Of a stretch of 41,325 nt of DNA, positions 1,270 through 19,421 are shown in pieces. The notes under the pieces were generated by a model. That model had not been told where the DNA came from and made no database searches. It saw only the letters and a program-made list of their open reading frames with translations. A program made the position numbers and the translations under genes. The stretch lies in the NCBI GenBank assembly GCA_036822015.1, contig DAISIL010000002.1, positions 75,268-116,592 on the forward strand, read 5' to 3'. Numbering within the stretch: the first letter of the stretch is position 1; each line of letters opens with the position of its first letter. The DNA comes from Bernardetiaceae bacterium (GTDB lineage: Bacteria; Bacteroidota; Bacteroidia; Cytophagales; Bernardetiaceae).

Positions 1270-2465
1270 GCCTGATGAATTTGTTGCCATATCGCGATTT
1301 GGTTACCAAAAATTTTAGAAAATCCTTTGACATCCTCCCCCGTCCAGCTCTTGTTCATTTCGCCGTAGCTCCCGAAGCGATCCGACATCAAATCAAAGGG
1401 ACTTTCGATGCCCAAAACCTCAAAACGATGTGGGTATAGCCGCAAATGAACCGTTCCGCTCACACGGGCTTGGCTGCTGTCGAGAAAAGCCTCTAAGTCG
1501 CGCATCACGGGATCGTGGTACAGCCCTTCGTGGAGAAAGTTGCCGTAGAATGCGCCCAGTTGGTCTTTCCATTGGAGTTGCCACTTGGTGAGTGTGTGTT
1601 TTTCGAGGGCGTGATGCGCCTTGATGAGCAAGATGGGGGCGGCGGCCTCAAAGCCTACCCGCCCTTTGATGCCAATGATCGTATCGCCTACGTGGATGTC
1701 TCGTCCAATCCCGAAGGGCTGTGCTATGGCTTGCAGTTCTTGGATGAGTGCTACGGGCGACCATGTTTGTCCGTTGAGGGCGATGGGTTCTCCTTTCAAA
1801 AACTCTAAGGAGATTGTTTCGGGGTCGGTTTTGGTGATGGGCGTAGGCCAGGCTTCCTCGGGTAGGGGCAGGTGTGAGGTGAGCGTTTCGGCACCACCTA
1901 CGGAGGTTCCCCAGAGACCCTGATTGATGGAGTAGCGGGCCTTTTGGGCATTGTAGGAGATGCCGTGCTGCTGGAGGTAGTCGATTTCGGCTTGGCGGCT
2001 TAGTTGGAGGTCGCGGATGGGGGTGAGGATGGATACCTGCGGGATCAGGACATGAAAAATCATATCGAAGCGCACCTGATCGTTGCCTGCCCCCGTGCTG
2101 CCATGAGCGATATAAGCCGCTCCCAGGGCGCGTGTGTGCTGGGCTACTGCGGTGGCCTGGCAGATACGCTCGGCACTTACCGAGAGTGGATATGTGCTGT
2201 TTTTGAGGACATTGCCAAAGAGCAGATAGCGCAACTGCTCCTGGTAGTAGGTCTGTGTTGCATCGATGGTCGTGTGCTGGGCTACGCCGAGGGCTTGGGC
2301 TTTTTGGGCGATCTGCTGGCATTCGGCATCGGAGAAGCCACCCGTATTGACGGTCAGGGTATGGACTTCCAGCCCGCGGTCTCGGGCTAAGTAGATGGCA
2401 CAAAAGGTGGTATCCAGCCCACCACTAAAAGCCAGGACGACTTTGTTGTTGGTTGCTTGGGTCAT
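1266..2465 (-). CDS. argG: argininosuccinate synthase
   Basis: VVLAFSGGLDTT PP-loop motif and full-length ~400-aa ArgG-like sequence. ATGA overlap with the upstream GNAT gene stop. Confidence 0.93.
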   Translation of the reverse strand: MTQATNNKVVLAFSGGLDTTFCAIYLARDRGLEVHTLTVNTGGFSDAECQQIAQKAQALGVAQHTTIDATQTYYQEQLRYLLFGNVLKNSTYPLSVSAERICQATAVAQHTRALGAAYIAHGSTGAGNDQVRFDMIFHVLIPQVSILTPIRDLQLSRQAEIDYLQQHGISYNAQKARYSINQGLWGTSVGGAETLTSHLPLPEEAWPTPITKTDPETISLEFLKGEPIALNGQTWSPVALIQELQAIAQPFGIGRDIHVGDTIIGIKGRVGFEAAAPILLIKAHHALEKHTLTKWQLQWKDQLGAFYGNFLHEGLYHDPVMRDLEAFLDSSQARVSGTVHLRLYPHRFEVLGIESPFDLMSDRFGSYGEMNKSWTGEDVKGFSKIFGNQIAIWQQIHQA

Positions 2466-3130
2466 GCTTTGCTTTTTTTGGTAAAGATCTTGGACAAACG
2501 CCCCAGAAGGCTACGCTTTTTTTTCATGCGCTTGAGGCGTTCTTTGGCGAGTTGTTTTTGTTCGATTTTGAGTTTTTGCTCTTTGGCTTTGGCTTCGGGA
2601 TCCCAGATCATGGCGGTACAGAGGCAGTTCTTGCGTTCTTTGCTTTGCAAGATTTCATAATTGATACAACTGCTACAACCTTTCCAAAAGTTATCATCTT
2701 GGGTGAGTTCGGAGTAGGGAGCGGGTTCGTAACCCAGCTCGGAGTTGATCTTCATGACGGCAAAGCCGGTCGTGAGTCCGAAGATTTTGGCATCGGGATA
2801 GAGCTTTCGGGAGAGATCAAAGATGGCTTTTTTGATGGCTTTGGCTAGTCCGCAGTTCCTGAACTGTGGATTGACGATCAAGCCCGAGTTGGCGACATAG
2901 CGTCCGTGGCTCCATGTCTCGATGTAACAGAAGCCGGCCCATGTGCCGTCGTGGTGCAGGGCAATGACGGCCTTGCCTTCGGTGATCTTCTCGGCGATGT
3001 ACTCGGGCCGGCGACGGGCAATACCCGTACCGCGCATCTTGGCCGATTCGGCCATCTCTTCACAAATCAACTCGGCATAATGCACGTGATTGGCATTGGC
3101 CTGCACAATCCGAAAATCAGATTTCTGCAT
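2462..3130 (-). CDS. GNAT-family N-acyltransferase, first gene of the arg operon (probable N-acetyl/N-succinyl-glutamate synthase analogue)
   Basis: GNAT-fold-like 222-aa protein with a Lys-rich C-terminal tail. It is translationally coupled to argG (ATGA overlap). Bacteroidota arg clusters characteristically begin with such an acetyltransferase. Confidence 0.7.
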   Translation of the reverse strand: MQKSDFRIVQANANHVHYAELICEEMAESAKMRGTGIARRRPEYIAEKITEGKAVIALHHDGTWAGFCYIETWSHGRYVANSGLIVNPQFRNCGLAKAIKKAIFDLSRKLYPDAKIFGLTTGFAVMKINSELGYEPAPYSELTQDDNFWKGCSSCINYEILQSKERKNCLCTAMIWDPEAKAKEQKLKIEQKQLAKERLKRMKKKRSLLGRLSKIFTKKSKA

Positions 3131-3184
3131 AGGGCAAAAAATATCAAAGCAAAAGGAGGTAAGCGCGTAGCGCGTAAGTCAAAG

Positions 3185-3198
3185 TGGTGTGTGTGTGT
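3185..3198. repeat. (GT)7 dinucleotide microsatellite in the intergenic region between DUF350 gene stop and arg operon start
   Basis: gtggtgtgtgtgtgtag read directly from the sequence. Confidence 0.6.
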
Positions 3199-3210
3199 AG
3201 TGAATGGAGA

Positions 3211-3729
3211 TTAGCGGATGTTTGGTAGCCTGGGGTAAGGTACCAGCGATTCCATGACCTGGATGATGGCCTCCTTAACGAACATGGAGATGACGATCAT
3301 GATGACCCCCGTCAGGATGCCGATGGCGATGTTGTTTTGTCTAATCTCCTCAAACTCGTCAAAGTGCGTCAGGCTGATATAGAGCTGGATGGATAGCCAG
3401 TTAATCAGTAGGGCAATAAAAAAACTGATGACAAAGAAGAGCAAGATATACAAAAATGCCTGTCCGGCGATAGTAGCCACGTGATCGTGGACATCGCGTA
3501 GCTGCCGGATGGTGCTGCTTACCGGTGCCACAATCCCCTCCAAAATATTACCGACCGAAAAAAGCATTGCCGCCCCCAACACCGCAAAAGCGATGTTGTC
3601 TTTTTCGATGTCATAGCGGCGCACGATGAGGCGTTGCATCACCAAAAAGGTGAGGTACAACACAAAAACAGAGAGCAGCAAGGCAATCCCCAACTCTAGC
3701 AGGGAGAGCAAAATCAAGGTGGTGTTCAT
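3211..3729 (-). CDS. DUF350 domain-containing inner-membrane protein (two DUF350 repeats)
   Basis: Two repeats of the hydrophobic-helix + D/E..EI..(G/N)N.A.A motif (YDIEKDNIAFAVLGAAMLF and FDEFEEIRQNNIAIGILTGV). Its N-terminus overlaps the stop of the upstream membrane protein by about 119 nt, so the true start could be an internal Met. Confidence 0.55.
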   Translation of the reverse strand: MNTTLILLSLLELGIALLLSVFVLYLTFLVMQRLIVRRYDIEKDNIAFAVLGAAMLFSVGNILEGIVAPVSSTIRQLRDVHDHVATIAGQAFLYILLFFVISFFIALLINWLSIQLYISLTHFDEFEEIRQNNIAIGILTGVIMIVISMFVKEAIIQVMESLVPYPRLPNIR

Positions 3730-5944
3730 CGTCTTGGGGGTTTGGGCGCAAGGATAAAATCTTTTCGGACAAGGACGGCATCTCCCAGGATACCTGGGCG
3801 AGGCATCGTATGAGGCGACGCGGCATACGGGTATAGTTCCAGACTTCTTCTAGTCCGGACTTGATTTCGAGGGCGGTAAGGTGTACCGTATCCTGGGGCA
3901 AGGCAATGACCTGCCAGAGGAGCGTATCAGCGGGGCGATAACGGACGTAAAGCGAGTCGGTCTGGAGGGCGGCCGCTCCAAAGTTGAGCCTTTGGCCACC
4001 CCGAATGTAAAGGCGGAGTTCGTCGGGCTGGCGTTGGGAGGGCGTATAACGCAGGGTGAGGTAGCGCAGGGAGTCGGTCTGGCCCAGGGTGTCGGTTAGG
4101 AGGTCGATCTGGGGTGCGGGCAGGTAGCGCATACTGTCGCGGGCAGTGAGGAAGCGTTGGTTTGCCCAGGGGAAGATGTCGGGCATCGGGCTGATGTCGG
4201 GGGCATTGCCGAAGAACTGCCGCGTATAGGTATCCGTGCTGGGGTCGGTGCTGCCCCAGAAGGCCTGGTCGCTGCTTAGGTTGATCGCAAAAAAGGCACT
4301 GTTGGGACGTTTGTGGTGTTTGCTGAACGCACTTCCGATGTGTCCGTAGAGCAACAGCCCTAGTCCCGTAACAAGCACGAGCAGGGGCATTGTCCAGCGC
4401 AAACCACCAGCCAGGACGCGCCACTGTGGCAAAAACAAAGCCAGCCACAAGCCTAAGGCACTGCACCAGAGGAGGGTTTTGTCAGCAAAAAGCAAGCCTT
4501 CGATGGTGGCCAGGGGCAGCCAAAGTTCGCCCAAATACCAGCCGGCAGGCAAAAAGAACAAGGTCAGGATGAGGGTATCGGCGGGGTTGTAGTCCGAGGT
4601 TTGGCGACCGCGCAGCAGCACATATACCCAACTCAACAAGCCCCAGAACATCGGAATCAACCAGAAGTGCAGAGCCGCTGTATCGAACAAAGCAAAGCCC
4701 GATAAGTCCATCGCCGCTGGCAAGGCCGATCCAAAAGGAACACCAAAAACAACCAGACCGCAGCCCAATATCGCCCAGGTCAGGGCGGCAGCCCCCAGGT
4801 CAATGGCCCGCAAGAAGCCCGCAAAAAAACCGTACATAAGCCAAAACCCACCTAGCATGAGCAGCGTAAGGCTCAACAAAAATACCGACTGCATCGGGAT
4901 ACCCCGCAGCGACTCCCCCCACCAAACAAAAGCCGGGTGCCAGGCCAGGGTCATCTGCCAAAGCAAAAACGTACCCGTCGCCGCCGTCCCGATCAAGACC
5001 GGAATCACGCACACACTCCAGAGGTACGAACCCAAAGAGATCGCCCCGCGCCATAAGCCCAACAGCAACAGGCAAACCCACACACCAGCCAGGGTCAAGA
5101 AGACGATCCGAGCCTCGAGGTGCGTATAGGCTACCTGCCCGATCAGCGGCACGACAAAGTAGCCCGCTACGGCATCTTCCGAAGCCTTCGCTTGCTCTCG
5201 AAAATTTAAGACCACATCTAGCAGGGTCTGGGTTTGGGCTTCCAGCAGCGGTAGCGAGACGTTCTCGGGGACATCCATGGCCGTCCCTTGCGCCAGATCG
5301 CCCTCCAGGGCCAGCAGCCAGCTTTTGCGCAAAGGCAGCCCCGTAGCCAGGACGGCATCCGCAACGGCCATACCGTGAGGCAGTACCGACTTACTCAACA
5401 ACACGGGTTTTCCGCGTGTCCCGCGCCCGGGCATTGAAAGTTGATGGGTCAGGTCAAGCCCTTGATCTACGGCTAGTTCGGGTTTATTTCCCCAAAAAAA
5501 GACGACATCCACAGGCGGGCGATATTCGGATGAACCCGCCAGCACGGATACCGCTTCGAGCATCGCGGCGGCCTGCAAAGCCTCTGAAGCCGGTAAGGGT
5601 TGCCGCAGAGGAGCTACCACGAGTAGCGTCCGGCTGCTGTCCTGCCCCGGCATACGGAGCCACACCTGATGGCTCGCCTCGAGGGAAAGATAGCCTTGCT
5701 TCTCCTCTTGCTGCACCTGCTGGTAGAGCGTGTCCTGAAAGTCTAGCCCGAGGCTATCGAGCCATCGGGTCAGGTGTGCCGGTGTCGAAGAAGCAAGCCG
5801 CTGAAAGTGCATCTCCAGGCGGTCTTTTTGGAGGGGATAACCCACCGACTGACGGGGCAGCTTTTGGGTCAAGCCAAAAAAAGCAGCCCCGACAAGCAAG
5901 AGCATCAGCCAGGCGGCCAGACGAGCAGAAAGCGAACGTGGCAT
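3611..5944 (-). CDS. large (777 aa) multi-pass membrane protein of unknown function with N-terminal signal/anchor and a about 230-aa C-terminal soluble domain
   Basis: Long ORF with roughly 10 or more hydrophobic helices in the central 350 aa (W/G/L-rich). I recognised no diagnostic catalytic motif. Confidence 0.55.
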   Translation of the reverse strand: MPRSLSARLAAWLMLLLVGAAFFGLTQKLPRQSVGYPLQKDRLEMHFQRLASSTPAHLTRWLDSLGLDFQDTLYQQVQQEEKQGYLSLEASHQVWLRMPGQDSSRTLLVVAPLRQPLPASEALQAAAMLEAVSVLAGSSEYRPPVDVVFFWGNKPELAVDQGLDLTHQLSMPGRGTRGKPVLLSKSVLPHGMAVADAVLATGLPLRKSWLLALEGDLAQGTAMDVPENVSLPLLEAQTQTLLDVVLNFREQAKASEDAVAGYFVVPLIGQVAYTHLEARIVFLTLAGVWVCLLLLGLWRGAISLGSYLWSVCVIPVLIGTAATGTFLLWQMTLAWHPAFVWWGESLRGIPMQSVFLLSLTLLMLGGFWLMYGFFAGFLRAIDLGAAALTWAILGCGLVVFGVPFGSALPAAMDLSGFALFDTAALHFWLIPMFWGLLSWVYVLLRGRQTSDYNPADTLILTLFFLPAGWYLGELWLPLATIEGLLFADKTLLWCSALGLWLALFLPQWRVLAGGLRWTMPLLVLVTGLGLLLYGHIGSAFSKHHKRPNSAFFAINLSSDQAFWGSTDPSTDTYTRQFFGNAPDISPMPDIFPWANQRFLTARDSMRYLPAPQIDLLTDTLGQTDSLRYLTLRYTPSQRQPDELRLYIRGGQRLNFGAAALQTDSLYVRYRPADTLLWQVIALPQDTVHLTALEIKSGLEEVWNYTRMPRRLIRCLAQVSWEMPSLSEKILSLRPNPQDDEHHLDFALPARVGDCLAALCFCVVPHLFGDATPHRAPL

Positions 5945-6085: not shown

Positions 6086-6667
6086 ATGACTTTTGATCCC
6101 GCCCTCATTAACGACTTGATTCATAGCCGACGTTCGGTATTTCCTGACCAGTTCACGGATCAGGTGATCCCCGATGCTATCGTTGAACAGATTTTGGAGA
6201 ACGCCCATCGTGCGCCTACCCACAAAAAAACCGAACCCTGGCGTTTCTTTGTCTTTGCGGGAACTGCACGGGAGCAACTCGCCCAAGCCCAGGCGGAGAT
6301 TTACAAAACCCACACGCCGGCAGAAAAATTTAGCGAAAAGACCTACCAAAAGCTCCTCCAAAAACCCCTCAAAGCCTCCCATATCATCGCTATCGCGATG
6401 CAGCGCGACCCCCGTGAGCGCGTCCCCGAGATCGAAGAGATCGAAGCCGTCGCTTGTGCCGTGCAAAATATCTATTTGAGTGCAACAGCTTATGGCTTAG
6501 GTGGATACTGGGGGAGTGGTGGGATTACGTATTATGCAGCCGCCAAAGAATATTTTGGTTTAGGCGAAAAAGACCGCCTGCTGGGCTTTTTCTATTTGGG
6601 TTATCCGGCGAGCCTACCCGAAGCCAGCCCGCGCAGCCCGATTTCGGAGAAGGTTACCTGGGTCTAA
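6086..6667 (+). CDS. nitroreductase-family oxidoreductase
   Basis: In-frame Met at 6086 (MTFDPALINDLIHSRRSVFPDQF...) gives a 193-aa protein with the nitroreductase-fold pattern (RRS.R.F, C-terminal GYP). The upstream part of the 5774 ORF overlaps the divergent membrane gene and is rejected. Confidence 0.75.
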   Translation: MTFDPALINDLIHSRRSVFPDQFTDQVIPDAIVEQILENAHRAPTHKKTEPWRFFVFAGTAREQLAQAQAEIYKTHTPAEKFSEKTYQKLLQKPLKASHIIAIAMQRDPRERVPEIEEIEAVACAVQNIYLSATAYGLGGYWGSGGITYYAAAKEYFGLGEKDRLLGFFYLGYPASLPEASPRSPISEKVTWV

Positions 6668-8174
6668 ACCCAAGGATGAGTACGTCGTCGAGTTGCTTTT
6701 CTTTGCCGCGCCAGTCGTCGAAGGTCTCGGATAAGATGGTTTCCTGAGTGGCAGCTTCCTGATCCGCAATTTTTGTAACGAGTTGGCGCAGGCGTTTGGC
6801 GGTGTATTTGGTGGGAATGGCTCCGCCGCCAAACTGATCGGGCATACCGTCGGAGGTCATGTAGAAGGTGTCCCCGGGCTGTATGTCAATCTCTTGTGCC
6901 GTGAAATGCTTGGCTTTATCGCCCCAGCTCCCGATAGGCACACGGTCGCCCTTGTAGGTGTCGATTTGCCCTTGGCGCACGCGCCATAAGGGCTGTCTGG
7001 CTCCGGCAAACTGCAGGCGGCTCTGGCTTTGATCGACGCGACAGATGGCCATATCCATCCCATCGGATACCTTTTTGTTATCAACGGATTTGCGGTGGAG
7101 TGTCTGGGCTAGGCGTTGGTCGAGTTGGTGTAGGATTTGATCGGTTTCCCAGCAGTGGTTGTCGGCGATGATCTGTTGGAGGAGCATGTTACCGATCATG
7201 GTCATGAAGCCGCCCGGAACGCCATGCCCGGTACAGTCGGCCAGGACGAGGAATTGGTAGTTTTTCTGAACAGCAAACCAATAAAAATCACCCGATACGA
7301 CATCCTTAGGTCTAAAAAAAGCAAAAAACATTGGGAAATGTTCTCCTATGCGGGCATGTTCGGGCAAGAGGGCGCGTTGGATGCGCTTGGCGTAAGTGAT
7401 GCTGGACATGACCTGTCGGTTGCGCTGATCGAGGAGGTGATGCTTCTCTTCGAGGTCTTCTTTTTGGGTGTTGATTTCTTCGTTTTGTTGGCGGATTTCC
7501 TCGTTTTGTTGTTCGATTTCGTTTTTTTGTTCTTCTACGAGCAGTTGCCCCAGGAACTGAAAGCGCCGGCTGCGCTCAATGACATAGCTGGCCAGCACAC
7601 CTACGGCATTGACACAAAACAAGATAATGTCTTCGTAGCCCAGCTCAAGCAAATCCACGTGCATCACCTGCAAGCCATAAAACTGAAAAGCCGCCAGAAT
7701 CCCCACGCCAAACCAAAGCAGCCGCTCAAAGCGGATGCCCGTAATGGTATAGCCCAAAAACAACACGATGGTCGTGATGCTGACCAAATAAAAATGCGCC
7801 AACTCGGCAATATTGGCTAAGATGAAGTTGCCCGCCGCCGCTACCAACAGGCTCGAAAAAGCTACCCACTGCAAGACCTTCGGTGTCGCGTTCTTTTGGA
7901 GGTAAGTCCAGGCCCAAACGCCCAACAAAAACGGTGCAACGACAGCCAGGCGCACCCATGCCAGGGCAGCAAAGTCGTTGGCGTGCAGAAAAAAATCTAG
8001 CCCGGCAAAAGACCCGTAAATGATCGCCCCCAAAAGTGCCGCCGTGCGGAGCATCCGTAGGTCGGAGGGCAGTGCAAACCAAGCGTACTGCTCCTCCGTA
8101 TCAGGCTCACGGAAGCGCAGCAGCAGGGGGTGCATCGGATGTGCGGATGGTAACATAACGAATGTAAAAAACAA
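6654..8174 (-). CDS. 7TM-receptor-type sensor fused to a PP2C/SpoIIE-family Ser/Thr phosphatase
   Basis: N-terminal about 200 aa with 7 predicted TM helices, then a coiled coil (EEQKNEIEQQNEEIRQQNEEINTQKEDLEE), then a SpoIIE/PP2C domain with the motifs VSGDFYWF, ADCTGHGVPGGFM, DGMDMAIC and DDVLILGFR. Confidence 0.85.
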   Translation of the reverse strand: MFFTFVMLPSAHPMHPLLLRFREPDTEEQYAWFALPSDLRMLRTAALLGAIIYGSFAGLDFFLHANDFAALAWVRLAVVAPFLLGVWAWTYLQKNATPKVLQWVAFSSLLVAAAGNFILANIAELAHFYLVSITTIVLFLGYTITGIRFERLLWFGVGILAAFQFYGLQVMHVDLLELGYEDIILFCVNAVGVLASYVIERSRRFQFLGQLLVEEQKNEIEQQNEEIRQQNEEINTQKEDLEEKHHLLDQRNRQVMSSITYAKRIQRALLPEHARIGEHFPMFFAFFRPKDVVSGDFYWFAVQKNYQFLVLADCTGHGVPGGFMTMIGNMLLQQIIADNHCWETDQILHQLDQRLAQTLHRKSVDNKKVSDGMDMAICRVDQSQSRLQFAGARQPLWRVRQGQIDTYKGDRVPIGSWGDKAKHFTAQEIDIQPGDTFYMTSDGMPDQFGGGAIPTKYTAKRLRQLVTKIADQEAATQETILSETFDDWRGKEKQLDDVLILGFRPR

Positions 8175-8249: not shown

Positions 8250-8257
8250 TAATTTTG
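8250..8257 (+). promoter_or_regulatory. candidate Bacteroidota sigma-A -7 element (TAnnTTTG) upstream of the TIR gene
   Basis: TAATTTTG lies 25 bp upstream of the ATG at 8282 in an AT-rich divergent intergenic region. No convincing -33 TTG was seen. Confidence 0.3.
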
Positions 8258-8281: not shown

Positions 8282-10756
8282 ATGTCGGATTTCAAAGATG
8301 TTTTTATCTCCTATGGTCGCGCGGAAAGCAAAGCCTTCGCTACCAAAATCCACGACTGGCTAAGGGCAGAGGATTATGCCGTGTGGTTCGATCAGAATGA
8401 CATCCCGCTGGCGGTAGATTTCCAGACCCAAATCGACCAGGGCATTCAGGAGGCCCACAACTTCATCTTTATCATCGCCCCGCACGCCCTACGCTCTGTT
8501 TATTGCCTCAAAGAAATTCTGCAAGCCATCCGGCTGGGTAAGCGCATCATCCCGATTTTGCACATCGAACCCCAGCAAAAAGAAGACTGGGATCAGATGC
8601 ACCCCACGATCTCGAAGCTCAACTGGCTGTACTTTAGGCAGCAGTATGATCCCAATCTTCCCCTTGAACAGTGGGAGGACATCGACGACTTTGCCAGAGC
8701 ATTTGATGCACTCAAAGCTGTTCTCCAGAGCAACCAGGAGTACGTCGCCTGGCATACCTATATCCTCAATGAAGCCATCCGCTGGAACCAAAACCAACGT
8801 CGCCCCCAGTTTTTACTTGCCGGAGACGACCGTGAACAAGCCCTCAAATGGCTCCTGACGGATTTTCGCAAAGAGCAAACCCCCTGCCTACCCACCGACC
8901 TACAATGCGAGTACATCTGCGAATCCCGAAAGAACGCCGAAAACCTCATGGCCGATGTCTTCATCTCATCCCCGCCCGCCGACCGCCGGCTACGGGAGCA
9001 GATCACGGCCGCCCTGCACCGCAAAAGCATCACGACCTGGACAGAAGCCGACATCAAAACCGGACAACGCGCCCGCGATGCCGCCAAGACGGGTATCCTG
9101 CATTCGGATAACTTCATCTTTTTTCTTTCCACCGAGTCCGTCGTTTCTGTCGAGTGCCTCAAAGAACTCAAAACAGCGATCAAGAACCAAAAGCGTATCA
9201 TCCCCCTGCTCGTGGAGTTTGTGGACGATTACCAAATCCCCCGCTCGGTGCGCTCCCTCAAGCGCGTCGATTTCACGGACAACGAAAACGAAGAGCATTT
9301 CCAGATCGACATCCGAGACCTGATCCAGGAAATCAGAAAAGACCAAACCTACTACCACCAACACAAAATACTCCTAGCCCGCGCCCTCAAGTGGGAACAA
9401 CAAAACCGCAACGATAGCATCTTGCTCCAGGGGCAATCCCTCCAAGAAGCCCAAGCCTGGCTCGACATCGGCGAACGCAGAGCCGACCATAAGCCCACCC
9501 AACTCCACCGAGATTTCATCCAGGAAAGCCTCCTCAAGACAGGACAAATCCGCACCGATGTTTTTCTTTGCTATGCCTCCAACGAAGGCGATTTTGTCCG
9601 ACGGCTCAACGAAGAACTACAAATCCACGGCAAAAACACCTGGTTCGATCAAGAAACCATCAACACCAACTCCTCCGAGGGCTTCCGTCAGGAGGTAGAG
9701 CAGGCTATCCTCGAATCCGATAACGTCGTTTTTATCCTCTCCAAAAAATCCGTCGAAAACACCGACACCCAAGCCGAACTCGCCCACGCCCAAACCCTGG
9801 GCAAGCGCATCATCACCCTGATTTACGACGAAGTACCACCCTGGCAGATGCCTGACCGCCTGCGCCAAACCACGCAAATTGATTTTGAGCGCGACAAGAT
9901 GGACTTCCACGACGCTTTCAGTCAGCTCATCCGCCAACTCGATGCCGACAGCGATCATGTCCGTAGCCACACCCGATGGGAGCAGGAGGCCCGCCAGTGG
10001 AGCCAAAACGGACAAAATGAAGACTTTCTCTTGCGCGGCAGTGAGTTCACGATTGCCAAGGAGTGGTTTGAGGAAGCCAAACGCCGCAACAAAAAACCCG
10101 CCCCCACCCCCCTCCAGGAATCCTTCATTGCCAAAAGCGAAGAGGTCATCGAATGGACGCGCCAGCAGGAGGAAGCCCAGGAGCGTCGCCTCCTCGACCT
10201 CGAACGTGCCCGTGTACGGGAGGCCCAGAAGCGCGTCCGACGGCAGAACATCTCCCTGGTTATCATCAGTGTAGCCCTTTTGGTGGCCATTGTCTTTGGC
10301 AGCATTGCCTACAAGCGTACCACGGAGGCCAGTGCCGCCCTAGCCATAGCCGAAGAAGCCGAAAAACTAGCCCGCCTCAAAACCGAAGAGACCGAACGCG
10401 CCCTCCAGAAATCTCTCGAAGCCGAAATCAGCCTCCAAAATGCCCTAATCGAAGTAGAAACGGCCCGAGCCAATGCCGAAGCCGCCCTCCAAAAAGCAGG
10501 CATCGCCATCTCCCAACGCCAGCAGGCGGTCAGGGAGCGCGTACAGGTAGAACGGCAGGCCAAAAGCAGGCTCTCGGCCCAGGAGCAACGCGAGATCGAA
10601 AAGTTCCAGGAACTCCGAAAGAAACTCGAGCAAGCCCAAAAAGACCTCCAGCGGGCGGTCGATGATATGGCTGCCATTGGGGTCATTCGTCCGGCAGTCA
10701 AGCAACGCCTGCGCGAGTTGATCGAAAAGGAGTTTAAGGAAGCTACCGTGGAGTGA
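8282..10756 (+). CDS. triple-TIR-domain membrane protein: TIR1 (aa 5-125), TIR2 (aa 224-345), TIR3 (aa 425-545), each followed by a W-rich helical module; TM helix at aa 657-676; C-terminal coiled coil at aa 680-824
   Basis: There are three betaA motifs (DVFISYGRAES, ADVFISSPPAD, TDVFLCYASNEG) and three alphaC motifs with a conserved Glu (SVYCLKEIL, SVECLKELK, TDTQAELAH), plus recurring KRIIP. The three linker modules are ILNEAIRWNQNQRRPQFLLAGDDREQALKWL, ILLARALKWEQQNRNDSILLQGQSLQEAQAWL and HTRWEQEARQWSQNGQNEDFLLRGSEFTIAKEWF. The hydrophobic stretch is ISLVIISVALLVAIVFGSIAY, flanked by KRVRRQN. Confidence 0.85.
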   Translation: MSDFKDVFISYGRAESKAFATKIHDWLRAEDYAVWFDQNDIPLAVDFQTQIDQGIQEAHNFIFIIAPHALRSVYCLKEILQAIRLGKRIIPILHIEPQQKEDWDQMHPTISKLNWLYFRQQYDPNLPLEQWEDIDDFARAFDALKAVLQSNQEYVAWHTYILNEAIRWNQNQRRPQFLLAGDDREQALKWLLTDFRKEQTPCLPTDLQCEYICESRKNAENLMADVFISSPPADRRLREQITAALHRKSITTWTEADIKTGQRARDAAKTGILHSDNFIFFLSTESVVSVECLKELKTAIKNQKRIIPLLVEFVDDYQIPRSVRSLKRVDFTDNENEEHFQIDIRDLIQEIRKDQTYYHQHKILLARALKWEQQNRNDSILLQGQSLQEAQAWLDIGERRADHKPTQLHRDFIQESLLKTGQIRTDVFLCYASNEGDFVRRLNEELQIHGKNTWFDQETINTNSSEGFRQEVEQAILESDNVVFILSKKSVENTDTQAELAHAQTLGKRIITLIYDEVPPWQMPDRLRQTTQIDFERDKMDFHDAFSQLIRQLDADSDHVRSHTRWEQEARQWSQNGQNEDFLLRGSEFTIAKEWFEEAKRRNKKPAPTPLQESFIAKSEEVIEWTRQQEEAQERRLLDLERARVREAQKRVRRQNISLVIISVALLVAIVFGSIAYKRTTEASAALAIAEEAEKLARLKTEETERALQKSLEAEISLQNALIEVETARANAEAALQKAGIAISQRQQAVRERVQVERQAKSRLSAQEQREIEKFQELRKKLEQAQKDLQRAVDDMAAIGVIRPAVKQRLRELIEKEFKEATVE

Positions 10757-10803
10757 TGCCCACAAAAAATTGTACCTTTGTTCAAAAAAAACATTCTCTC
10801 TGT

Positions 10804-11193
10804 ATGCCTACCATTGATATTACCGGAAAAATCATCAAGAAATTTGATACGCAGGTAGTCTCCGAACGCTTCCAAAAACGGGAGTTTGTCTTGCACGTGG
10901 AGGAGGATCGCTATCCCCAAGAAATCCTGCTACAACTGGTCCAGGACAAATGCGATCTCCTGGATAGCTACAAGGAAGGCGACCAGGTGCTGGCCCGCGT
11001 AGCCATCGAAGGGCGCAGTTGGCAACGCTCGCCGTCAGAACCCATGCGTTGGTTTAACTCCCTTAAAGTCTTTGCGCTGCAAGCAGCGGCCGGAGAGAGC
11101 AGTAGCCCTGCGTTCGCGCCCGCAACAACAAGCAGCGCACCCCCGCCCCCGCCTCCGCCCCCGCCCACCAGCGCGGATGACCTGCCCTTCTGA
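10804..11193 (+). CDS. DUF3127-family protein with C-terminal Pro-rich linker and SSB-like acidic tip (…APPPPPPPPPTSADDLPF)
   Basis: MPTIDITGKIIKKF...REFVLHVEEDRYPQEILLQLVQDKCDLL...GDQVLARVAIEGRSW...RWFNSLKVFALQ matches the DUF3127 pattern. Start chosen at the Met at 10804. The stop overlaps the folP start. Confidence 0.65.
   Translation: MPTIDITGKIIKKFDTQVVSERFQKREFVLHVEEDRYPQEILLQLVQDKCDLLDSYKEGDQVLARVAIEGRSWQRSPSEPMRWFNSLKVFALQAAAGESSSPAFAPATTSSAPPPPPPPPPTSADDLPF
11141..11167 (+). repeat. (CCCCCG)n hexanucleotide simple-sequence repeat encoding the poly-Pro linker
   Basis: ccccgcccccgcctccgcccccgccc read directly from the sequence. Confidence 0.7.
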
Positions 11194-12041
11194 TGACCAG
11201 CCCGTCTGCCTTTAGCCTGCGCCTGGGCGGCTCCCTGATGTCTCTGGATAGGCCCAAGGTGATGGGTATTCTCAACCTTACCCCCGATTCTTTTTTTGCT
11301 GGCAGCCGAGTGTCCCAAACCGAGGCACTTCTACGGCGTGCCGAGCAGATGCTCAACGAAGGTGCCGACTTCCTGGACGTAGGAGGCTACTCCACCCGCC
11401 CAGGGGCTAGCCCCGTACCCGTAGCGGAGGAGCAGCGGCGGGTGCGCGAGGCGATACAGGCATTGGTACAAGCCTTTCCGGAGGCGCATATCTCCGTGGA
11501 TACCTTTCGGGCTTCGGTGGTCGAGGTAGCCGTCGGGGAAGGAGCCGTGCTGATAAACGACGTATCGGGGGGTAGCCTAGACCCGCAGATGTTCCAGACC
11601 GTAGCCCGTCTGCGCGTCCCTTATGTGCTGATGCACCTACGTGGGACACCCCAAACGATGATGACCCTCAACCAGTACGAGGATTTGCTCCTGGACATCA
11701 TCGAGGAGTTACAGGCTCGTCTGGTACAACTTCGTCGCCTGGGCGTATCCGACGTGATCCTGGATCCGGGCTTTGGCTTCGCCAAAAATATCCCCCAAAA
11801 CTTCCAACTCCTGCGCCAACTCCCCGAGCTGCACCTGCTGGGCTGTCCTCTTTTGGTGGGGCTTTCTCGCAAGTCGATGATTTACAAGATGCTCCATATC
11901 ACGGCCGAGCAGGCCCTCAACGGCAGCACAGTCCTGCATACGCTTGCGTTGGAGCAAGGGGCGCATATCTTGCGTGTCCATGACGTAAAAGCGGCTCGGG
12001 AGGCTGTCCAACTTTGGGTTGCCTTTCGGGGAAAGGCATAG
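11193..12041 (+). CDS. folP: dihydropteroate synthase
   Basis: VMGILNLTPDSF, DVGGYSTRPGA, LINDVSGG and ILDPGFGFAK motifs over a 282-aa pterin-binding domain. Confidence 0.9.
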   Translation: MTSPSAFSLRLGGSLMSLDRPKVMGILNLTPDSFFAGSRVSQTEALLRRAEQMLNEGADFLDVGGYSTRPGASPVPVAEEQRRVREAIQALVQAFPEAHISVDTFRASVVEVAVGEGAVLINDVSGGSLDPQMFQTVARLRVPYVLMHLRGTPQTMMTLNQYEDLLLDIIEELQARLVQLRRLGVSDVILDPGFGFAKNIPQNFQLLRQLPELHLLGCPLLVGLSRKSMIYKMLHITAEQALNGSTVLHTLALEQGAHILRVHDVKAAREAVQLWVAFRGKA

Positions 12042-12149
12042 ATTTTAGTTATCTGACCATCAGAAAGATTGATGTTTTGCTCTCGAAAAGTCAAGTATCT
12101 TTGTCGAAATTCTGATAACTAAGGTTACAACTTACTACCGCTTAACGAA

Positions 12150-12183
12150 CGCTTCTCTGCCCGGGGGAGCGTTTCTTTTTTTT
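12150..12183 (+). terminator. candidate rho-independent terminator downstream of folP (imperfect GC-rich hairpin plus T-run)
   Basis: cgcttctctgcccgggggagcg can form a stem of about 8 bp including wobbles, followed by tttcttttttttat. Confidence 0.3.
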
Positions 12184-12190
12184 ATCTTTG
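12183..12190 (+). promoter_or_regulatory. candidate -7 promoter element (TATCTTTG = TAnnTTTG) upstream of hisG
   Basis: Perfect match to the Bacteroidota -7 consensus, 42 bp upstream of the hisG ATG. It is embedded in the T-run of the putative folP terminator. Confidence 0.3.
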
Positions 12191-12231
12191 CGCCTTCACC
12201 GGTCATCAAACCAACAAATCAACAAAGCGAT

Positions 12232-13092
12232 ATGTCCGACAAACTACGGATAGCCGTCCAGAAGTCCGGGCGGCTGAGTGAAGGATCAGATGCACTCCTA
12301 CGCGAATGCGGCATTCAGTTTCAGCAAGGAAAAGGAAAACTCAAGGCAGTGGCGCATAATTTTCCGATTGAGATTTTGTTTTTGCGGGACGACGACATCC
12401 CTGCCTACGTCCAGGACGGCGTAGCCGATGTGGGTATCCTGGGCGAAAACGTCGTCGTAGAAAAACAACAGTCCGTACAGATACTCGAACGCCTGGGCTT
12501 CTCGAAGTGCCGGCTCTCCATCGCCGTTCCACGCGGGGCGACCTACCACGGCATCGCAGACCTATCCGGCAAAAAGATCGCTACCTCCTACCCGCATCTG
12601 CTGGGGAGCTACCTCGAGGCGCAGGGCATTACGGCTAAGCTGCACTTTATCAACGGATCGGTAGAAATTGCGCCGAGCATTGGGCTGGCAGATGCTGTGT
12701 GCGACATCGTGAGTTCGGGTAGCACCCTGTTGAGCAACGGACTCAAAGAAGTACAGACCATCTTTAAGTCCGAGGCTGTCTTGATTGCCGGAAACGGCTT
12801 GAGTGCCGAGCGTCAGGCGATCTTGGATCAGCTTCGGTTTAGGATTCAGTCGGTTCGTCGGGCGGAGGGGCGGAAGTACATCTTACTCAATGCTCCGGAG
12901 GATCAACTGGATACGATTTTGTCCATTTTGCCGGGTCTCAAAAGCCCCACGGTGATGCCCCTGGCAACCAAAGGCTGGTATTCGGTGCACTCGGTGATTG
13001 AGGAGGATGTTTTTTGGGAAAAAATAGCCGCTCTTCGCACGGCCGGTGCCGAGGGCATCCTGGTTGTCCCGATCGGGAAGATGATTATCTAA
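12232..13092 (+). CDS. hisG: ATP phosphoribosyltransferase, long form
   Basis: LRIAVQKSGRL N-terminus and 286 aa including a C-terminal regulatory domain. Confidence 0.9.
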   Translation: MSDKLRIAVQKSGRLSEGSDALLRECGIQFQQGKGKLKAVAHNFPIEILFLRDDDIPAYVQDGVADVGILGENVVVEKQQSVQILERLGFSKCRLSIAVPRGATYHGIADLSGKKIATSYPHLLGSYLEAQGITAKLHFINGSVEIAPSIGLADAVCDIVSSGSTLLSNGLKEVQTIFKSEAVLIAGNGLSAERQAILDQLRFRIQSVRRAEGRKYILLNAPEDQLDTILSILPGLKSPTVMPLATKGWYSVHSVIEEDVFWEKIAALRTAGAEGILVVPIGKMII

Positions 13093-13791: not shown

Positions 13792-14982
13792 TTAACGCCA
13801 TATTGTGATGCGTACTTTCCGATCTTTGGTGGTGGTGCTGGGCCGGGTATCTGCTTCATTGGCAAAAAACTCTCCGTGGGCTTTGGTCAGGATATGATCG
13901 TATTTCAGTCCGAGCATCTGCAAGACAAAAGAAACGGCATCAATACGATCAGCGGCTAGATGTAGATTTTGTTGTACATCGCCCGTCGCATCGGCGTAGC
14001 CCTCTAAGAACGCAGAAAGTCCGGCATAATGGTTGGCTTTAATGAAGTTTTCGATTTCTTTTTTGCTTTCTTCGCTGACATTGGCACTATTGACCTCAAA
14101 GAAAACCTCGAGGCTTTGTGTTTTCTTGGGGGTATGCGCCTGTGCATTGAGGGCTTTACCGCTGGGGCCGCCCAGATGCACGACGTAGCGACGGGTTTGT
14201 TTGGGGGGGAGGTCGGAGGGTTTCCATTCCATCAAGACAGCACTATCGTCGGTGTATTGCATGACCCCTTCGCTGGTATCGAGCCTAAAGATGTTGCTTA
14301 GGTAGGCCCACTGCCCCACACAGAGGGCATCCATGGGGTGGCTATCTTCGGTTTCCTGGGTAAGGACGATGGCCTGCGCTGCTGTGGGGTTGGTGTGGTC
14401 GTGATGAAAGACGACTTTTCGGGGGATGGCCGGATAAGCAAATACTTCGTCGAGCATCACCAACTGCCCGTCGCCGGTGGCTACGCAGTTGTCTTTGTCT
14501 TCGATTTTGGCATCGAGCATCAGGCTTAGCCCAACGGGTATGCGACGGTCGGCGTTGTTGGTGATTTCGTACTCGATGCGGTAGTACGTGCCGTCTTTGC
14601 CGAGCGGAACGGGCTGTAGCTGGGCATCTACGGGGATAAGTTTTTGTTTGATGGAGAGTTGGGCAAAAGAAAAGTGCGTTTCGATGTATCGCGATCCTAC
14701 CTCTGTTTCTAGCCCGACGATCTTAGCCCGTGTGATGCGCTCGCCCAGCAGGTGTTGTGTCTGGTAAAAATCCGGTGAGTTGGAGGCCAGCCGCGCCCCT
14801 GCTTGCAGGATAAAATGTGAACTCGAATACCGATGCGGATAACCAAACAGCAGTGGATGGTCTTGATAACCAATCGTAAAGCGCCCATCAGCTGATTTTT
14901 CGACCCGCTCCTCCGGTGGATGCCCCCCAGAAAACGAGAACAAAGACAACGTTACCACCAGTAAGAAAGATAGGAAATTCAT
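13792..14982 (-). CDS. OmpA-family protein (N-terminal unknown domain plus C-terminal OmpA-like peptidoglycan-binding domain)
   Basis: Start set at MNFLSFLLVVTLSLFSFSGG (signal peptide; ATG 14982..14980) rather than the ORF-track 15165. The C-terminus (FEVNSANVSEESKKEIENFI...LEGYADATGDVQQNLHLAADRIDAV) is OmpA_C-like. Confidence 0.7.
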   Translation of the reverse strand: MNFLSFLLVVTLSLFSFSGGHPPEERVEKSADGRFTIGYQDHPLLFGYPHRYSSSHFILQAGARLASNSPDFYQTQHLLGERITRAKIVGLETEVGSRYIETHFSFAQLSIKQKLIPVDAQLQPVPLGKDGTYYRIEYEITNNADRRIPVGLSLMLDAKIEDKDNCVATGDGQLVMLDEVFAYPAIPRKVVFHHDHTNPTAAQAIVLTQETEDSHPMDALCVGQWAYLSNIFRLDTSEGVMQYTDDSAVLMEWKPSDLPPKQTRRYVVHLGGPSGKALNAQAHTPKKTQSLEVFFEVNSANVSEESKKEIENFIKANHYAGLSAFLEGYADATGDVQQNLHLAADRIDAVSFVLQMLGLKYDHILTKAHGEFFANEADTRPSTTTKDRKVRITIWR

Positions 14983-15110
14983 ATTTTTGCGTTTTGTACC
15001 GAGTAAAAATAGCCTGTTTGGCACTTTTTTGCTATTTTTCCAACGAAAAAATAGCCCGGCCTTGTACCCCAGCCTTTGACAAAGCCCGTCATCCACAAAA
15101 ATACCAAATT

Positions 15111-16022
15111 TTGAGCATCTTAGAAATTCAGCAACTGACCAAAGCCTATCACAGTCATCAGGCACTCAAAGGCATCACCTTTGCTATCCCTCGCGGTACG
15201 ATCTTTGGTCTGTTGGGCCCCAATGGTGCCGGCAAAACGACGCTTTTGCGGATCATCAATCAGATCATACAAGCCGATAGCGGAACAATACTCTTTGATA
15301 ACCAGCCACTTGCTCCTAAGCACATCGCCCGTATTGGCTATCTGCCCGAAGAGCGGGGACTCTACAAAAAAATGAAAGTCGGGGAGCAGCTCATGTACCT
15401 GGGGCAGCTCAAAGGACTTTCGGCGGCCGCCGTCAAGGACAAGCTCCGCTACTGGAACGATCGCTTTGCGATGCACGGGTGGTGGAAAAAAAGTGTGAGC
15501 GACCTCTCGAAGGGGATGCAACAAAAAGTTCAGTTTATCAGTACGGTACTCCACGAACCCGAGTTGATTATCCTCGACGAGCCTTTTTCGGGCTTCGACC
15601 CGGTCAATGCAGACTTGATTCAGGAGGTCATCTTAGAGTTTCGGGATCGCGGACATACCATCTTGTTTTCTACCCACCGGATGGAATCCGTCGAAGAACT
15701 CTGCCAGGCCCTGGTACTGATCCATCAAGGCGAACTGATCCTGGAGGGTACCAAAGCCGAGATCAAGGCCCGCTACCGCCCCTTCATTTACGAGTTGCTC
15801 ACCGATGCCCCGCTTGTTTTCGATCAAACGCCAGCCTTTGATATTCTGGGTATCCAGCCCGAAGATGGCCGCTACCGTACCCAGGTGCGCATCCAGGATG
15901 CCCAACATACGGGACAGGATTTGATCGCGGCCAGCATCGCCCAAACTACCGTCTGGGCCTTTCAGGAACAGATGCCCCGTATCCATGAGATTTTTGTGCG
16001 GCTTGTACAGGGGCAGGACTGA
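15111..16022 (+). CDS. ABC transporter ATP-binding protein
   Basis: GPNGAGKTT Walker A, LSKGMQQKV signature, ILDEPFSGFD Walker B and a His-loop. There is no in-frame ATG; the TTG at 15111 (MSILEIQQLTKAY...) is the most plausible start. The ORF-track extension to 14916 overlaps the divergent OmpA gene. Confidence 0.75.
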   Translation: MSILEIQQLTKAYHSHQALKGITFAIPRGTIFGLLGPNGAGKTTLLRIINQIIQADSGTILFDNQPLAPKHIARIGYLPEERGLYKKMKVGEQLMYLGQLKGLSAAAVKDKLRYWNDRFAMHGWWKKSVSDLSKGMQQKVQFISTVLHEPELIILDEPFSGFDPVNADLIQEVILEFRDRGHTILFSTHRMESVEELCQALVLIHQGELILEGTKAEIKARYRPFIYELLTDAPLVFDQTPAFDILGIQPEDGRYRTQVRIQDAQHTGQDLIAASIAQTTVWAFQEQMPRIHEIFVRLVQGQD

Positions 16023-16043
16023 CCGTTTTTGTAACTTTGTGAG

Positions 16044-17018
16044 ATGGAATGGACATGGTATCGTAGCTGGGGCGGGCAAGAGACGCTCCTGATGGTAGTT
16101 TTTGGTGTGTTGTATCTCCTGTTTGTCTTGCGCCTGGATCGCTCGGCGCGGGTTTTGGGGGTCAAGCCCTACCGCGTCTGGATCAAGGCTGCCCTGCGGC
16201 TAAGTTATTTTTTGCTGCTTTTGTTGGCCTTTTTGGGGCCTTCCTTCGGAAAAATCAAACGAGAGATTGCTGCCGTAGGCAAGGATATTTATATTGCTCT
16301 TGATCTCTCTGGCTCCATGAATGCCCAGGACATCGCCCCCTCGCGGCTGGATCGGGTCAAGTTTGAACTCAAAAAGCTATCCGATGCCTTTGCTTCGGAT
16401 CGCTTAGGCTTGATTATTTTTTCCTCCGAAGCCTTCGTACAATGCCCGCTCACCTACGACCAACGGGCCTTTTCGCTCTTCCTCGAGACCCTCAATACCA
16501 ACCTCGTCCCCAAAAGTGGCACCGACTTCGGCCCGCCCTTACGCATGGCCCTGGAGAAGCACACCGAAGACCAAAACAGCGGCGGCCGACCCAGTGCCAA
16601 GATCATCTTACTCATCAGTGATGGGGAGGACTTCGGTAAGGAAGCCCAAGAGGTGGCCCAGGAAATCAAGCAAGCCGGTATCAGGCTCTTTACTCTCGGG
16701 ATCGGGACAGCGACGGGCGGAAAAATTCCCGCCAACAACGGCTTCAAGCGCGATGCCCAGGGCAATGAAGTCATCACCCGCCTCAACTCGGACGACCTGC
16801 AAGAACTCTCCCGCATCACCGACGGCAAGTATTTTGAAGTCAGCGATACCCGAAACGACATCTCCCGTCTGATCCAGACCATTGCCCAGATCGAAGGACA
16901 GACCCGCGACGTGCGCCAACTCGATGCCTCGGCCAACAAATACTACTACCTCCTCTACCTTGCCCTGGGCTTGATTCTGATTGATCTCCTCTTGATGGTG
17001 CGGCTCTTGAAGCTATGA
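16044..17018 (+). CDS. BatA/BatB-like membrane-anchored von Willebrand factor A domain protein
   Basis: Two N-terminal TM helices, a vWA domain with the DLSGSM MIDAS motif (IALDLSGSMN, ILLISDGEDFG), and a C-terminal TM. Confidence 0.75.
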   Translation: MEWTWYRSWGGQETLLMVVFGVLYLLFVLRLDRSARVLGVKPYRVWIKAALRLSYFLLLLLAFLGPSFGKIKREIAAVGKDIYIALDLSGSMNAQDIAPSRLDRVKFELKKLSDAFASDRLGLIIFSSEAFVQCPLTYDQRAFSLFLETLNTNLVPKSGTDFGPPLRMALEKHTEDQNSGGRPSAKIILLISDGEDFGKEAQEVAQEIKQAGIRLFTLGIGTATGGKIPANNGFKRDAQGNEVITRLNSDDLQELSRITDGKYFEVSDTRNDISRLIQTIAQIEGQTRDVRQLDASANKYYYLLYLALGLILIDLLLMVRLLKL

Positions 17019-18586: not shown

Positions 18587-19421
18587 TCAGAATAGCTGCA
18601 TCTGTGGTTCAATTTCCTTGACCATCATCTGATGGTAGTCCTCCGTGATTTCGATGCCGATGCTGTGCCGCCCCATCTTTTGCGCAACCCGAAGGGTTGT
18701 TCCTGATCCGGCAAAGGGATCAAGTACGGTATCGCCTGCTTGTGTGAACAGTTTGATGAACCACTCAGGGAGGGAGTGCTTCTGGGAAGGCGGCTGGATG
18801 GTTTTTGTTTTGGCATTCTGTGGCCAGGTGGATCACGTTATTGGGATAAACGGTGTCTTTTCCTACCCAGTTGGCGATCTTCTTTCCAAAACCACTGCCA
18901 TTTTTGGCTGTATCGCGTACTTTATCCGTCTGGCTTAGATTTTTCAAACGCCCCTTTGCCCAGTCTCCAATCGGTACTTTGACGGCATCCTGGTACATGT
19001 TGAATTTTTTCTCTTTGTTGAACTGGAGCAAACGCTCCCAGCTATCTCTGAAGCGGTTCGACCACTTGCCTGGATAAGAATTTTTTTTGTGCCACACAAA
19101 CTCCTCCGTCCAAAGCCAGCCCTGCTGGCGCAAGGATAGGATCAACTCTAGTACATAGGTACTGCGTTCACCATTGACTACTTTCTCCTTGATATTCAGG
19201 ACAAACGTACCTGTAGGCTTGAGGATACGGTGCAACTCCCCCCCAATAGGCAGAAACCAGTCCACGTATTGATCGGGATGAATGCCACCATAGCTATTTT
19301 TTCTTTGGTCGGCATAAGGAGGCGATGTAAAGATGAGATCTACGCTTTGGTCGGGTAACTGTTGTAGTATCTCTCGGCAATCGCCCAAAAATATATCGGT
19401 CTTAATGGTCATCAAGAACAA
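18587..19421 (-). pseudogene. N4/N6 DNA methyltransferase (PF01555-like, beta-class: SPPY motif before FxGxG), disrupted by a +1 frameshift near 18770-18780
   Basis: Frame A gives MTIKTDIFLGDCREIL...DLIFTSPPY...HPAAFPEALPP*. Shifting one base continues EWFIKLFTQAGDTVLDPFAGSGTTLRVAQKMGRHSIGIEITEDYHQMMVKEIEPQMQLF*, the canonical C-terminal AdoMet-binding half. An extra C in tccctccctga explains the break. Confidence 0.7.

Follow-up and report, generated by a model that had tools for sequence, protein, structure and literature searches.

TIR domains that cleave nicotinamide adenine dinucleotide (NAD+), here called NADases, are inactive as monomers, and an ordered TIR-TIR assembly completes their active site, as in SARM1, AbTir filaments, TIR-STING, TIR-SAVED and SPARTA. 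To our knowledge, work on bacterial TIR enzymes has so far concerned soluble proteins, whose activating cues arise in the cytoplasm (nucleotides, guide-target duplexes, phage proteins). The gene considered here was found in a 41,325-nucleotide stretch of a Bernardetiaceae bacterium (assembly GCA_036822015.1, contig DAISIL010000002.1, positions 75,268 to 116,592; hereafter the window). It encodes a protein of 824 amino acids (aa) composed of three TIR domains (TIR1 to TIR3), each followed by a helical module, then a single transmembrane (TM) helix and a helical tail. Judged from its residues, this protein has one clearly competent-looking TIR, TIR1, and two diverged ones. The reading preferred here, on which our confidence is evenly balanced, is that of a stand-alone, receptor-like NADase crossing the inner membrane once with its N-terminus inside, in which TIR1 would be the catalyst, TIR2 and TIR3 structural partners, and the periplasmic part would control assembly or activation.

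The open reading frame (ORF) starts with ATG and spans 824 codons plus a stop, precisely as described in an earlier reading made from the letters of the window alone (the sequence-only reading). Its product was identical to the NCBI entry 'MAG: TIR domain-containing protein [Bernardetiaceae bacterium]', which is P0001 of our homolog list. The three consecutive TIR_2-like domains announced there were recovered by Pfam, TIR_2 (PF13676) matching three stretches with 213.5 bits (cut-off 28; E 1.2e-63); the Pfam models TIR, ThsB_TIR and SEFIR gave weaker matches, that of SEFIR lying below its cut-off. Three units of about 200 aa (aa 1-215, 216-420 and 421-640) displayed 29% pairwise identity (E 3e-17 to 2e-21), a likeness far above chance. 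That the domains are genuine TIR folds was confirmed by Foldseek searches of the PDB, in which TIR proteins alone occupied the top (SARM1, RPP1, Hydra TRR-2, AbTir, MyD88 and SPARTA TIR-APAZ) with target-normalised TM-scores of 0.70-0.86 for isolated TIR domains; no solved structure spanning a TIR and the helical module was encountered in this search. Its hidden Markov model (HMM) score and the flavodoxin-like beta-alpha fold seen with AlphaFold2 and Foldseek both place the protein in the TIR superfamily. TIRs occupying the same position in different species were far closer to each other than sister TIRs inside one protein, and the triplication is therefore old, with specialised copies.

All three TIRs retained a glutamate on helix alphaC, at the position expected for catalysis (E78, E295 and E499, each encoded by GAA at the nucleotides given by the sequence-only reading; Table 1), and these residues shared one column of the HMM alignment of units. 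Among homologs this Glu was kept in 106/106 TIR1, 104/106 TIR2 and 105/106 TIR3 domains. Its placement could be compared with known TIRs by sequence alignment in two cases. The best sequence relative of TIR1 with a solved structure was the SARM1 TIR (E 3e-7), and Y11, R13, D37, F47 and E78 aligned with SARM1 Y568, R570, D594, F603 and E642 (SARM1 residue numbers were read off the alignment, with E642 as the fixed point). TIR3 matched AbTir best among PDB sequences (E 2.7e-5); E499 coincided there with the TNYEL-motif Glu, which we take to be the catalytic E208. TIR2 alone found no match among PDB sequences at E 0.01, hence no direct PDB alignment for E295.

Conservation of the pocket was scored position by position in 73 homologs. 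Y11, G12, R13, D37, S72, C75 and E78 of TIR1 were invariant, F47 and Y74 nearly so, and TIR1 of the window displayed all nine of these family residues. The family motif ahead of the Glu was S-x-Y-C-x-x-E, with Tyr where SARM1, AbTir and plant TIRs have the Trp of WxxxE. TIR2 lacked the equivalents of the Arg and the Asp throughout the family; the window copy additionally lacked the betaA Tyr, the BB-loop Phe and the aromatic residue four positions before the Glu, displaying S230, P232, A264 and E291 versus Y, (E/D), F and Y in the family. TIR3 was canonical family-wide (Y, S, R, D, F, S, Y, C, E), whereas in the window S433, N493, D495 and T496 stood in place of R, S, Y and C, so that the Arg, the Ser, the aromatic residue and the Cys were gone. 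These losses in TIR2 and TIR3 were common to the clade of the window protein (P0001-P0005), one member of which (P0005) displayed Gln at the Glu position of TIR2. Mean identity to the window protein was 63.6% for TIR1, 43.4% for TIR2, 41.8% for TIR3 and 21.5% for the tail, TIR1 being the most conserved part. The sequence-only reading had presented all three TIRs as catalytically competent; this is overstated, because TIR2 and TIR3 have diverged, each of them missing three to four of the pocket residues in the clade of the window protein, and only TIR1 appears to keep every SARM1-equivalent one.

Homologs were numerous: 993 of the candidates scored fell at E<=1e-5, and the best 120 were all at E<1e-172. 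When copies of the unit were counted with a unit HMM in these 120 proteins, 106 displayed exactly three and the remaining 14 four to seven. A TM segment directly followed the last unit in almost all complete proteins of this set. The window protein, with three units, the H/W/W signature of the module and a TM helix after the last module, thus belongs to a family of the form (TIR + three-helix module)xN-TM, in which at least three units are present. The sequence-only reading knew of no described system with such an architecture; the triple form in fact defines a large family of hundreds of proteins, 106 of the 120 best homologs included. All annotated copies are simply labelled 'TIR domain-containing protein' at NCBI. 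The open-access text of the literature on tandem or triple TIRs, TIR-WD40 proteins and membrane TIR receptors, and of a TIR survey, held no description of the architecture or of the module, although large comparative-genomics surveys could still list it in their supplementary tables.

Members were spread over Cyanobacteria, Cytophagales, Gemmatimonadota and Thioploca/Beggiatoa, and the named sources were mostly filamentous or gliding (Symploca, Moorena, Coleofasciculus, Nostoc, Calothrix, Bernardetia, Flexithrix, Thioploca, Ca. Parabeggiatoa). Diversity resided mainly in what follows the TM segment. Most cyanobacterial and Gemmatimonadota members and many from Bacteroidota displayed WD40 propellers there; WG repeats, dCache_2 (P0094) and CHASE2 (P0014) were also encountered, and long Bernardetia paralogs carried a bundle of about 8-10 TM helices. 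A short form of 823-837 aa with only a helical tail, to which the window protein belongs, was found in Bernardetiaceae and Flexibacter. At the other end, an extra N-terminal domain of about 140 aa was present in P0038, P0050, P0051, P0067, P0085, P0011, P0012 and P0094; in the two that were scanned (P0012 and P0094) this domain, which precedes the first TIR, matched Nuc_deoxyri_tr2, whose fold is related to that of TIRs.

The helical module that the sequence-only reading had noticed after each TIR is indeed present and conserved, with a signature spacing of W-x9-LL instead of the proposed W-x8-LL. Across 318 units W168 and W190 were invariant, H158 was found in 315, and LL178-179, G181, A187 and a P-x-P-T...L..[FY]I..S tail were nearly invariant. 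Modelled in isolation, module 1 formed a three-helix bundle (predicted local distance difference test, pLDDT, 95.8; predicted TM-score, pTM, 0.81). A module profile matched the window protein three times (E 1e-24 to 1e-26) and, among 1.84 billion cluster representatives defined at 50% identity, retrieved 5,497 at E<=0.001, 1,623 at <=1e-10 and 295 at <=1e-30; the 150 best matches carried three to seven module copies each. Within the 27 fetched loci and the window, where ORFs without a TIR were searched as well, the module was confined to proteins of the TIR family, though it may also occur in caspase-WD40 or NACHT-WD40 proteins elsewhere. A Pfam scan of 59 isolated modules yielded scattered chance matches only and no Pfam family, and no specific match of the module to a solved structure was found. 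The best PDB sequence-profile match, to RNase H at E 0.34, was dismissed as chance. The module is in no domain database and could merit definition as a new domain; the invariant Trp, Trp and His give it the look of a binding module.

The sequence-only reading placed a single TM helix at aa 657-676, with positive charges on its N-terminal side, and both points were confirmed: only one strongly hydrophobic segment was detected (aa 657-675/676; Kyte-Doolittle value, KD, 2.86), and the 12 residues flanking it contained five K/R on the N-side and two on the C-side. The extracytoplasmic coiled coil of about 145 aa suggested to follow it corresponds to a tail of 148-149 aa in which Ala, Glu, Arg and Gln abound; this tail is predicted to be helical (675-798 and 804-823) and is probably outside. 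Location of the TIRs in the cytoplasm is supported because the dCache and CHASE2 variants imply an extracytoplasmic position for what follows the first TM segment: in P0094, dCache_2 (1015-1264) sits between TM 985 and TM 1270, after the TIR repeats, and in P0014 CHASE2 comes directly after the repeats. These variants are the strongest computational evidence for this topology, in which the N-terminus would be inside.

A full-length AlphaFold2 model built on the 73 homologs (mean pLDDT 85.4, pTM 0.70) displayed in each unit a canonical TIR, running from betaA to alphaE, and three helices after it, with linkers of about 4-8 residues between units. In module 3 the third helix started at aa 610 and continued unbroken to 665, through the juxtamembrane segment toward the membrane. 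The model with its short linkers and this unbroken helix speaks for a rigid architecture. Beyond the membrane came a helix of about 124 residues (675-798), about 18 nm long if straight, and then the terminal helix 804-823. All 17 short-form orthologs displayed tails of 148-159 aa with conserved KAG[IV]A and GV[IV]RP kinks, though tail identity was only about 20-30%. Such constancy of length hints at a ruler-like or partner-binding role of the stalk in the periplasm.

These features also bear on a non-enzymatic explanation, in which the protein would be a membrane-anchored platform for TIR interactions, comparable to animal TLR and adaptor TIRs, serving envelope, gliding or filament physiology without any NAD+ chemistry. 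The degenerate state of TIR2 and TIR3, the resemblance of the W/W/H module to a binding module, the recurrence of the short form with its length-conserved tail across Bernardetiaceae and Flexibacter and a housekeeping genomic context all agree with it. The pocket does not: its Glu and SARM1-equivalent residues are invariant or nearly so in TIR1 over the 73 homologs, the Glu persists at all three TIRs in no fewer than 98% of cases, and this pattern fits catalysis better than pure scaffolding; besides, the solved structures nearest in sequence belong to two NADases, SARM1 and AbTir. A mere scaffold is considered unlikely.

Although a member of the TIR superfamily, the protein is not one of Thoeris, bSEFIR, CBASS-TIR, retron-TIR, SPARTA, SARM1 or the Toll-like receptor (TLR) family, each of which fails in a defining feature. 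SARM1 is the best solved relative of TIR1 by sequence and by fold; the window protein differs in having no ARM or SAM domains, Tyr for Trp before the Glu, three TIRs with modules in one chain, and a membrane anchor. AbTir is a fold match of the window protein (target-normalised TM-score 0.74) besides being the best PDB sequence match of TIR3. However, AbTir, PdTIR and BtTir are soluble and consist of a coiled coil and one TIR, and in TIR3 of the window the aromatic residue is missing together with others of the pocket. Toll-like receptors and IL-1R share with the family an outside domain, one TM helix and a TIR inside, relatives of the window protein having sensor-type outside domains. A TLR has an N-terminal ectodomain of leucine-rich repeats (LRRs), a TM helix and a C-terminal TIR, whereas the window protein is inverted (type II, TIRs N-terminal), has neither LRRs nor Ig domains, ends in a helical stalk, and carries three TIRs with enzyme-type pockets instead of one of adaptor type. 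The comparison with TLRs is an analogy and not a membership: the layout appears most TLR-like, the predicted chemistry most SARM1/AbTir-like.

Likeness to defence systems was found at the level of domains. Several HMMs of Thoeris ThsB matched, but Thoeris and bSEFIR systems have no tandem units, module or TM helix, and the window gene has no ThsA-type partner; the NCBIfam model ThcB4 scored 50.9 bits versus a cut-off of 220, and no SIR2, SLOG or Macro gene was present among the window ORFs scanned. bSEFIR proteins are defined by an N-terminal SEFIR match stronger than the TIR match, the reverse of what was observed here (Pfam SEFIR 22.2 bits, cut-off 23, versus 213.5 for TIR_2). CBASS TIR-STING and TIR-SAVED and retron-TIR are marked by a STING, SAVED or reverse-transcriptase domain fused to the TIR and by a cyclase or ncRNA partner, but in the window protein the TIR part alone matched (SAVED_TIR over aa 3-83; retron-TIR 65.5 bits versus a cut-off of 600). 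SPARTA TIR-APAZ was aligned by Foldseek over 142-171 columns, slightly beyond the TIR, and PADLOC TIR-PNTD matched aa 424-597; nevertheless both an Argonaute partner and an APAZ domain are absent here, and the root-mean-square deviation was high where the alignment passed the TIR.

From these matches a classical anti-phage, abortive-infection effector could be proposed, which would sense phage at the envelope or a phage protein, deplete NAD+ and kill the cell in the manner of single-gene TIR and SEFIR defences; bSEFIR is a validated defence of that kind. PADLOC gave domain-level matches to PDC-S66 (4.6e-20), to several ThsB models and to bSEFIR (1.7e-6, aa 425-797). Some relatives lie beside SLATT genes or toxins, or on plasmids with integrases and transposases, as on a 58-kb Kovacikia plasmid where the gene neighbours an integron integrase, transposases and a cytosine methyltransferase; paralogs occur in tandem, those of Allocoleopsis and Caldora being adjacent. 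Yet no defence genes surround the window gene or its short-form orthologs, and the scores of the defence models given above are far below every curated cut-off, only SEFIR coming near. This explanation, which we consider unlikely, overlaps the preferred one and differs only in naming the trigger.

The receptor-like NADase preferred here would work as follows. The gene is regarded as standing alone because its neighbours vary among relatives. The outside element would set the oligomeric or conformational state, and the continuous helix would relay a change in it to the TIRs, which form a rigid array in the cytoplasm. In relatives the trigger would be the binding of a ligand to WD40, dCache or CHASE2; for the window protein, the length-conserved stalk would have to oligomerise or come under strain. 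TIR1 is predicted to cleave NAD+, and TIR2 and TIR3 would probably be mainly built-in partner TIRs, giving the TIR-TIR interfaces needed for activity. The output would be NAD+ cleavage, felt as NAD+ depletion or as an ADP-ribose-derived signal, and the likely setting would be the envelope of filamentous or gliding bacteria, where the protein would sense conflict or damage. The SLATT genes, toxins, tandem paralogs and mobile elements around some relatives agree with a conflict-type setting.

Several observations weigh against this mechanism. Even in TIR1 the aromatic residue four positions before the Glu is Tyr and not the Trp of WxxxE. The PADLOC and NCBIfam matches are domain-level only and far below family cut-offs, and the window protein itself has no recognisable sensor domain, displaying a stalk only. 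The gene is surrounded in the window by housekeeping and chemotaxis-like genes and not by a defence island, no reader or partner for a TIR product is encoded in the window, and no homolog was found in 50,697 phage records.

A broader and more tentative proposal, possible but held with clearly less confidence, is that the family forms a bacterial class of TLR-analogous transmembrane receptors with enzymatic output. An extracytoplasmic sensor (WD40, dCache, CHASE2, WG repeats or, in the window protein, a stalk of conserved length that spans the periplasm) would act through the continuous helix on a rigid triple-TIR array, the module would space the TIRs or bind a nucleotide product, and the short form would sense envelope geometry or integrity and trigger NAD+ cleavage. 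If true, TIR arrays wired by a single helix to extracytoplasmic sensors would bring TIR signalling to the bacterial cell surface and would offer a testable bacterial counterpart of the outside-sensor, inside-TIR logic of animal receptors. With one conserved TIR of catalytic type and two diverging partner TIRs, the family may also lend itself to studies of the gating of NADase activity by TIR-TIR interfaces. The features of the locus are collected in Table 1.

Table 1. Features of the triple-TIR gene and its immediate neighbours (positions in the window; aa numbering of the 824-aa protein).
Feature	Position	Strand	Remarks
-7 promoter-like box (Bacteroidota-type), TAATTTTG	8250..8257	+	TAnnTTTG match, ~24-25 nt before the ATG of the TIR gene
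Whole ORF, triple-TIR membrane protein	8282..10756	+	824 aa + stop; Pfam matches, NCBI identity
TIR1 (aa 5-135)	8294..8686	+	Full family pocket Y11, G12, R13, D37, F47, S72, Y74, C75, E78; Glu codon 8513-8515
Helical module 1 (aa 150-219), three-helix bundle	8729..8938	+	H158, W168, LL178-179, G181, W190
TIR2 (aa 224-335)	8951..9286	+	E295 kept (codon 9164-9166); S230, A264 and E291 at lost pocket positions
Helical module 2 (aa 353-418)	9338..9535	+	Module conservation, model, module profile match
TIR3 (aa 426-540)	9557..9901	+	Kept: E499 (codon 9776-9778), Y431, D456, F468; replaced: S433, N493, D495, T496
Helical module 3 (aa 555-620)	9944..10141	+	Last helix unbroken into the pre-TM helix (helix 610-665, model)
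Charged juxtamembrane helix (aa 621-656)	10142..10249	+	Ends KRVRRQN
Single transmembrane helix (aa 657-676)	10250..10309	+	Hydrophobicity; positive-inside bias points to an N-terminus in the cytoplasm
Extracytoplasmic helical stalk (aa 677-824), predicted	10310..10753	+	One ~124-residue helix, KAGIA and GVIRP kinks, terminal helix
Polytopic membrane SpoIIE/PP2C phosphatase, divergent neighbour	6654..8174	-	System membership unsupported; co-occurs only in the closest ortholog
DUF3127 protein, downstream neighbour	10804..11193	+	Own -7-like box 10773-10780; system membership unsupported; co-occurs only in the closest ortholog

The two genes flanking the TIR gene were grouped with it in the sequence-only reading, which described a 7TM-PP2C phosphatase across a divergent region of 108 bp and a DUF3127 gene 47 bp downstream. 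The divergent PP2C neighbour is present; the gap measures 107 nt with the TTG start of the SpoIIE/PP2C gene, and the N-terminal half of its product displayed five clear hydrophobic segments, not demonstrably seven. The distance of 47 nt to the DUF3127 gene proved correct, using the ATG at 10804. The DUF3127 protein ends in a run of nine prolines followed by ...SADDLPF, a tail that resembles the disordered linker and acidic tip of the bacterial single-stranded DNA-binding protein (SSB).

The corresponding explanation, three active NADase TIRs in a three-gene module with the PP2C protein as regulator and DUF3127, was found highly improbable. The three Glu residues are kept, intergenic distances are short, and in a 72%-identical ortholog (L017/L018) SpoIIE and DUF3127 flank the TIR gene too. 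Against it stand the near-invariant pocket residues lost from TIR2 and TIR3 and the Gln of P0005, as well as the neighbourhoods of less similar orthologs of the short form, which are housekeeping genes unrelated to those of the window: HPPK and FTHFS at 46% identity (L019), ComA and MarC at 45%, and DUF2158 and inositol monophosphatase in Bernardetia orthologs at 42%, both on the chromosome and on a 602-kb replicon. The WD40-form and polytopic-form relatives examined had no PP2C or DUF3127 neighbours. Moreover, each of the three genes has its own match to TAnnTTTG, the Bacteroidota -7 promoter element, located 24-25 nt before the ATG in the TIR and DUF3127 genes and on the opposite strand for the phosphatase. 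Such boxes are enriched in the window (30 matches versus 16.3 expected); a consensus match is no proof of function. Adjacency of PP2C, TIR and DUF3127 genes is best explained as local synteny between close relatives, and the gene standing alone, as in the receptor-like NADase, suits the neighbourhoods of the other orthologs and paralogs.

Synteny of the short form was also kept inside Bernardetia (L021 and L027), with DUF2158 upstream and inositol monophosphatase downstream; in one strain the gene lies on the 602-kb replicon among IS4, ISL3 and IS1182 transposases. Two lineages have folate-pathway genes beside the TIR gene, L019 with HPPK and FTHFS (5281-5766 and 8551-10218) and the window with folP (11193-12041), which is probably residual synteny or coincidence. 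In Moorena producens (L026), the neighbours of a WD40-form relative are two SLATT_3/DUF4231 genes, a pair of toxin genes of the bacterial RNase A type (RNase_A_bac) and a second triple-TIR-WD40 paralog (features at 4507-5142, 10570-12252, 2025-3537 and 14039-16320); they may hint at what reads TIR products or acts on them as an effector.

The remainder of the window encodes enzymes of amino-acid and folate biosynthesis (semialdehyde dehydrogenase, argininosuccinate synthase, folP, hisG), MnmE, PorV and a Cas6-like ORF at its end. A methyl-accepting protein of 2,434 aa with at least 12 PAS domains, GAF and HAMP (23104-30408, minus strand) clusters with CheA, a ParA-like ATPase and a PAS-SpoIIE phosphatase (20097-21872, 30471-31229 and 31313-33505), the latter being the second PP2C-type phosphatase of the window. 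A polytopic membrane protein of 777 aa (3611-5944, minus strand) matched no Pfam family. An ORF of the N6_N4_Mtase DNA methylase family was located at 18765-19421 (minus strand), with no obvious restriction partner among the ORFs scanned. The Cas6-like ORF (40317-41141, plus strand) displayed a Cas6 C-terminal domain at the very edge of the window, and a CRISPR locus may lie just beyond.

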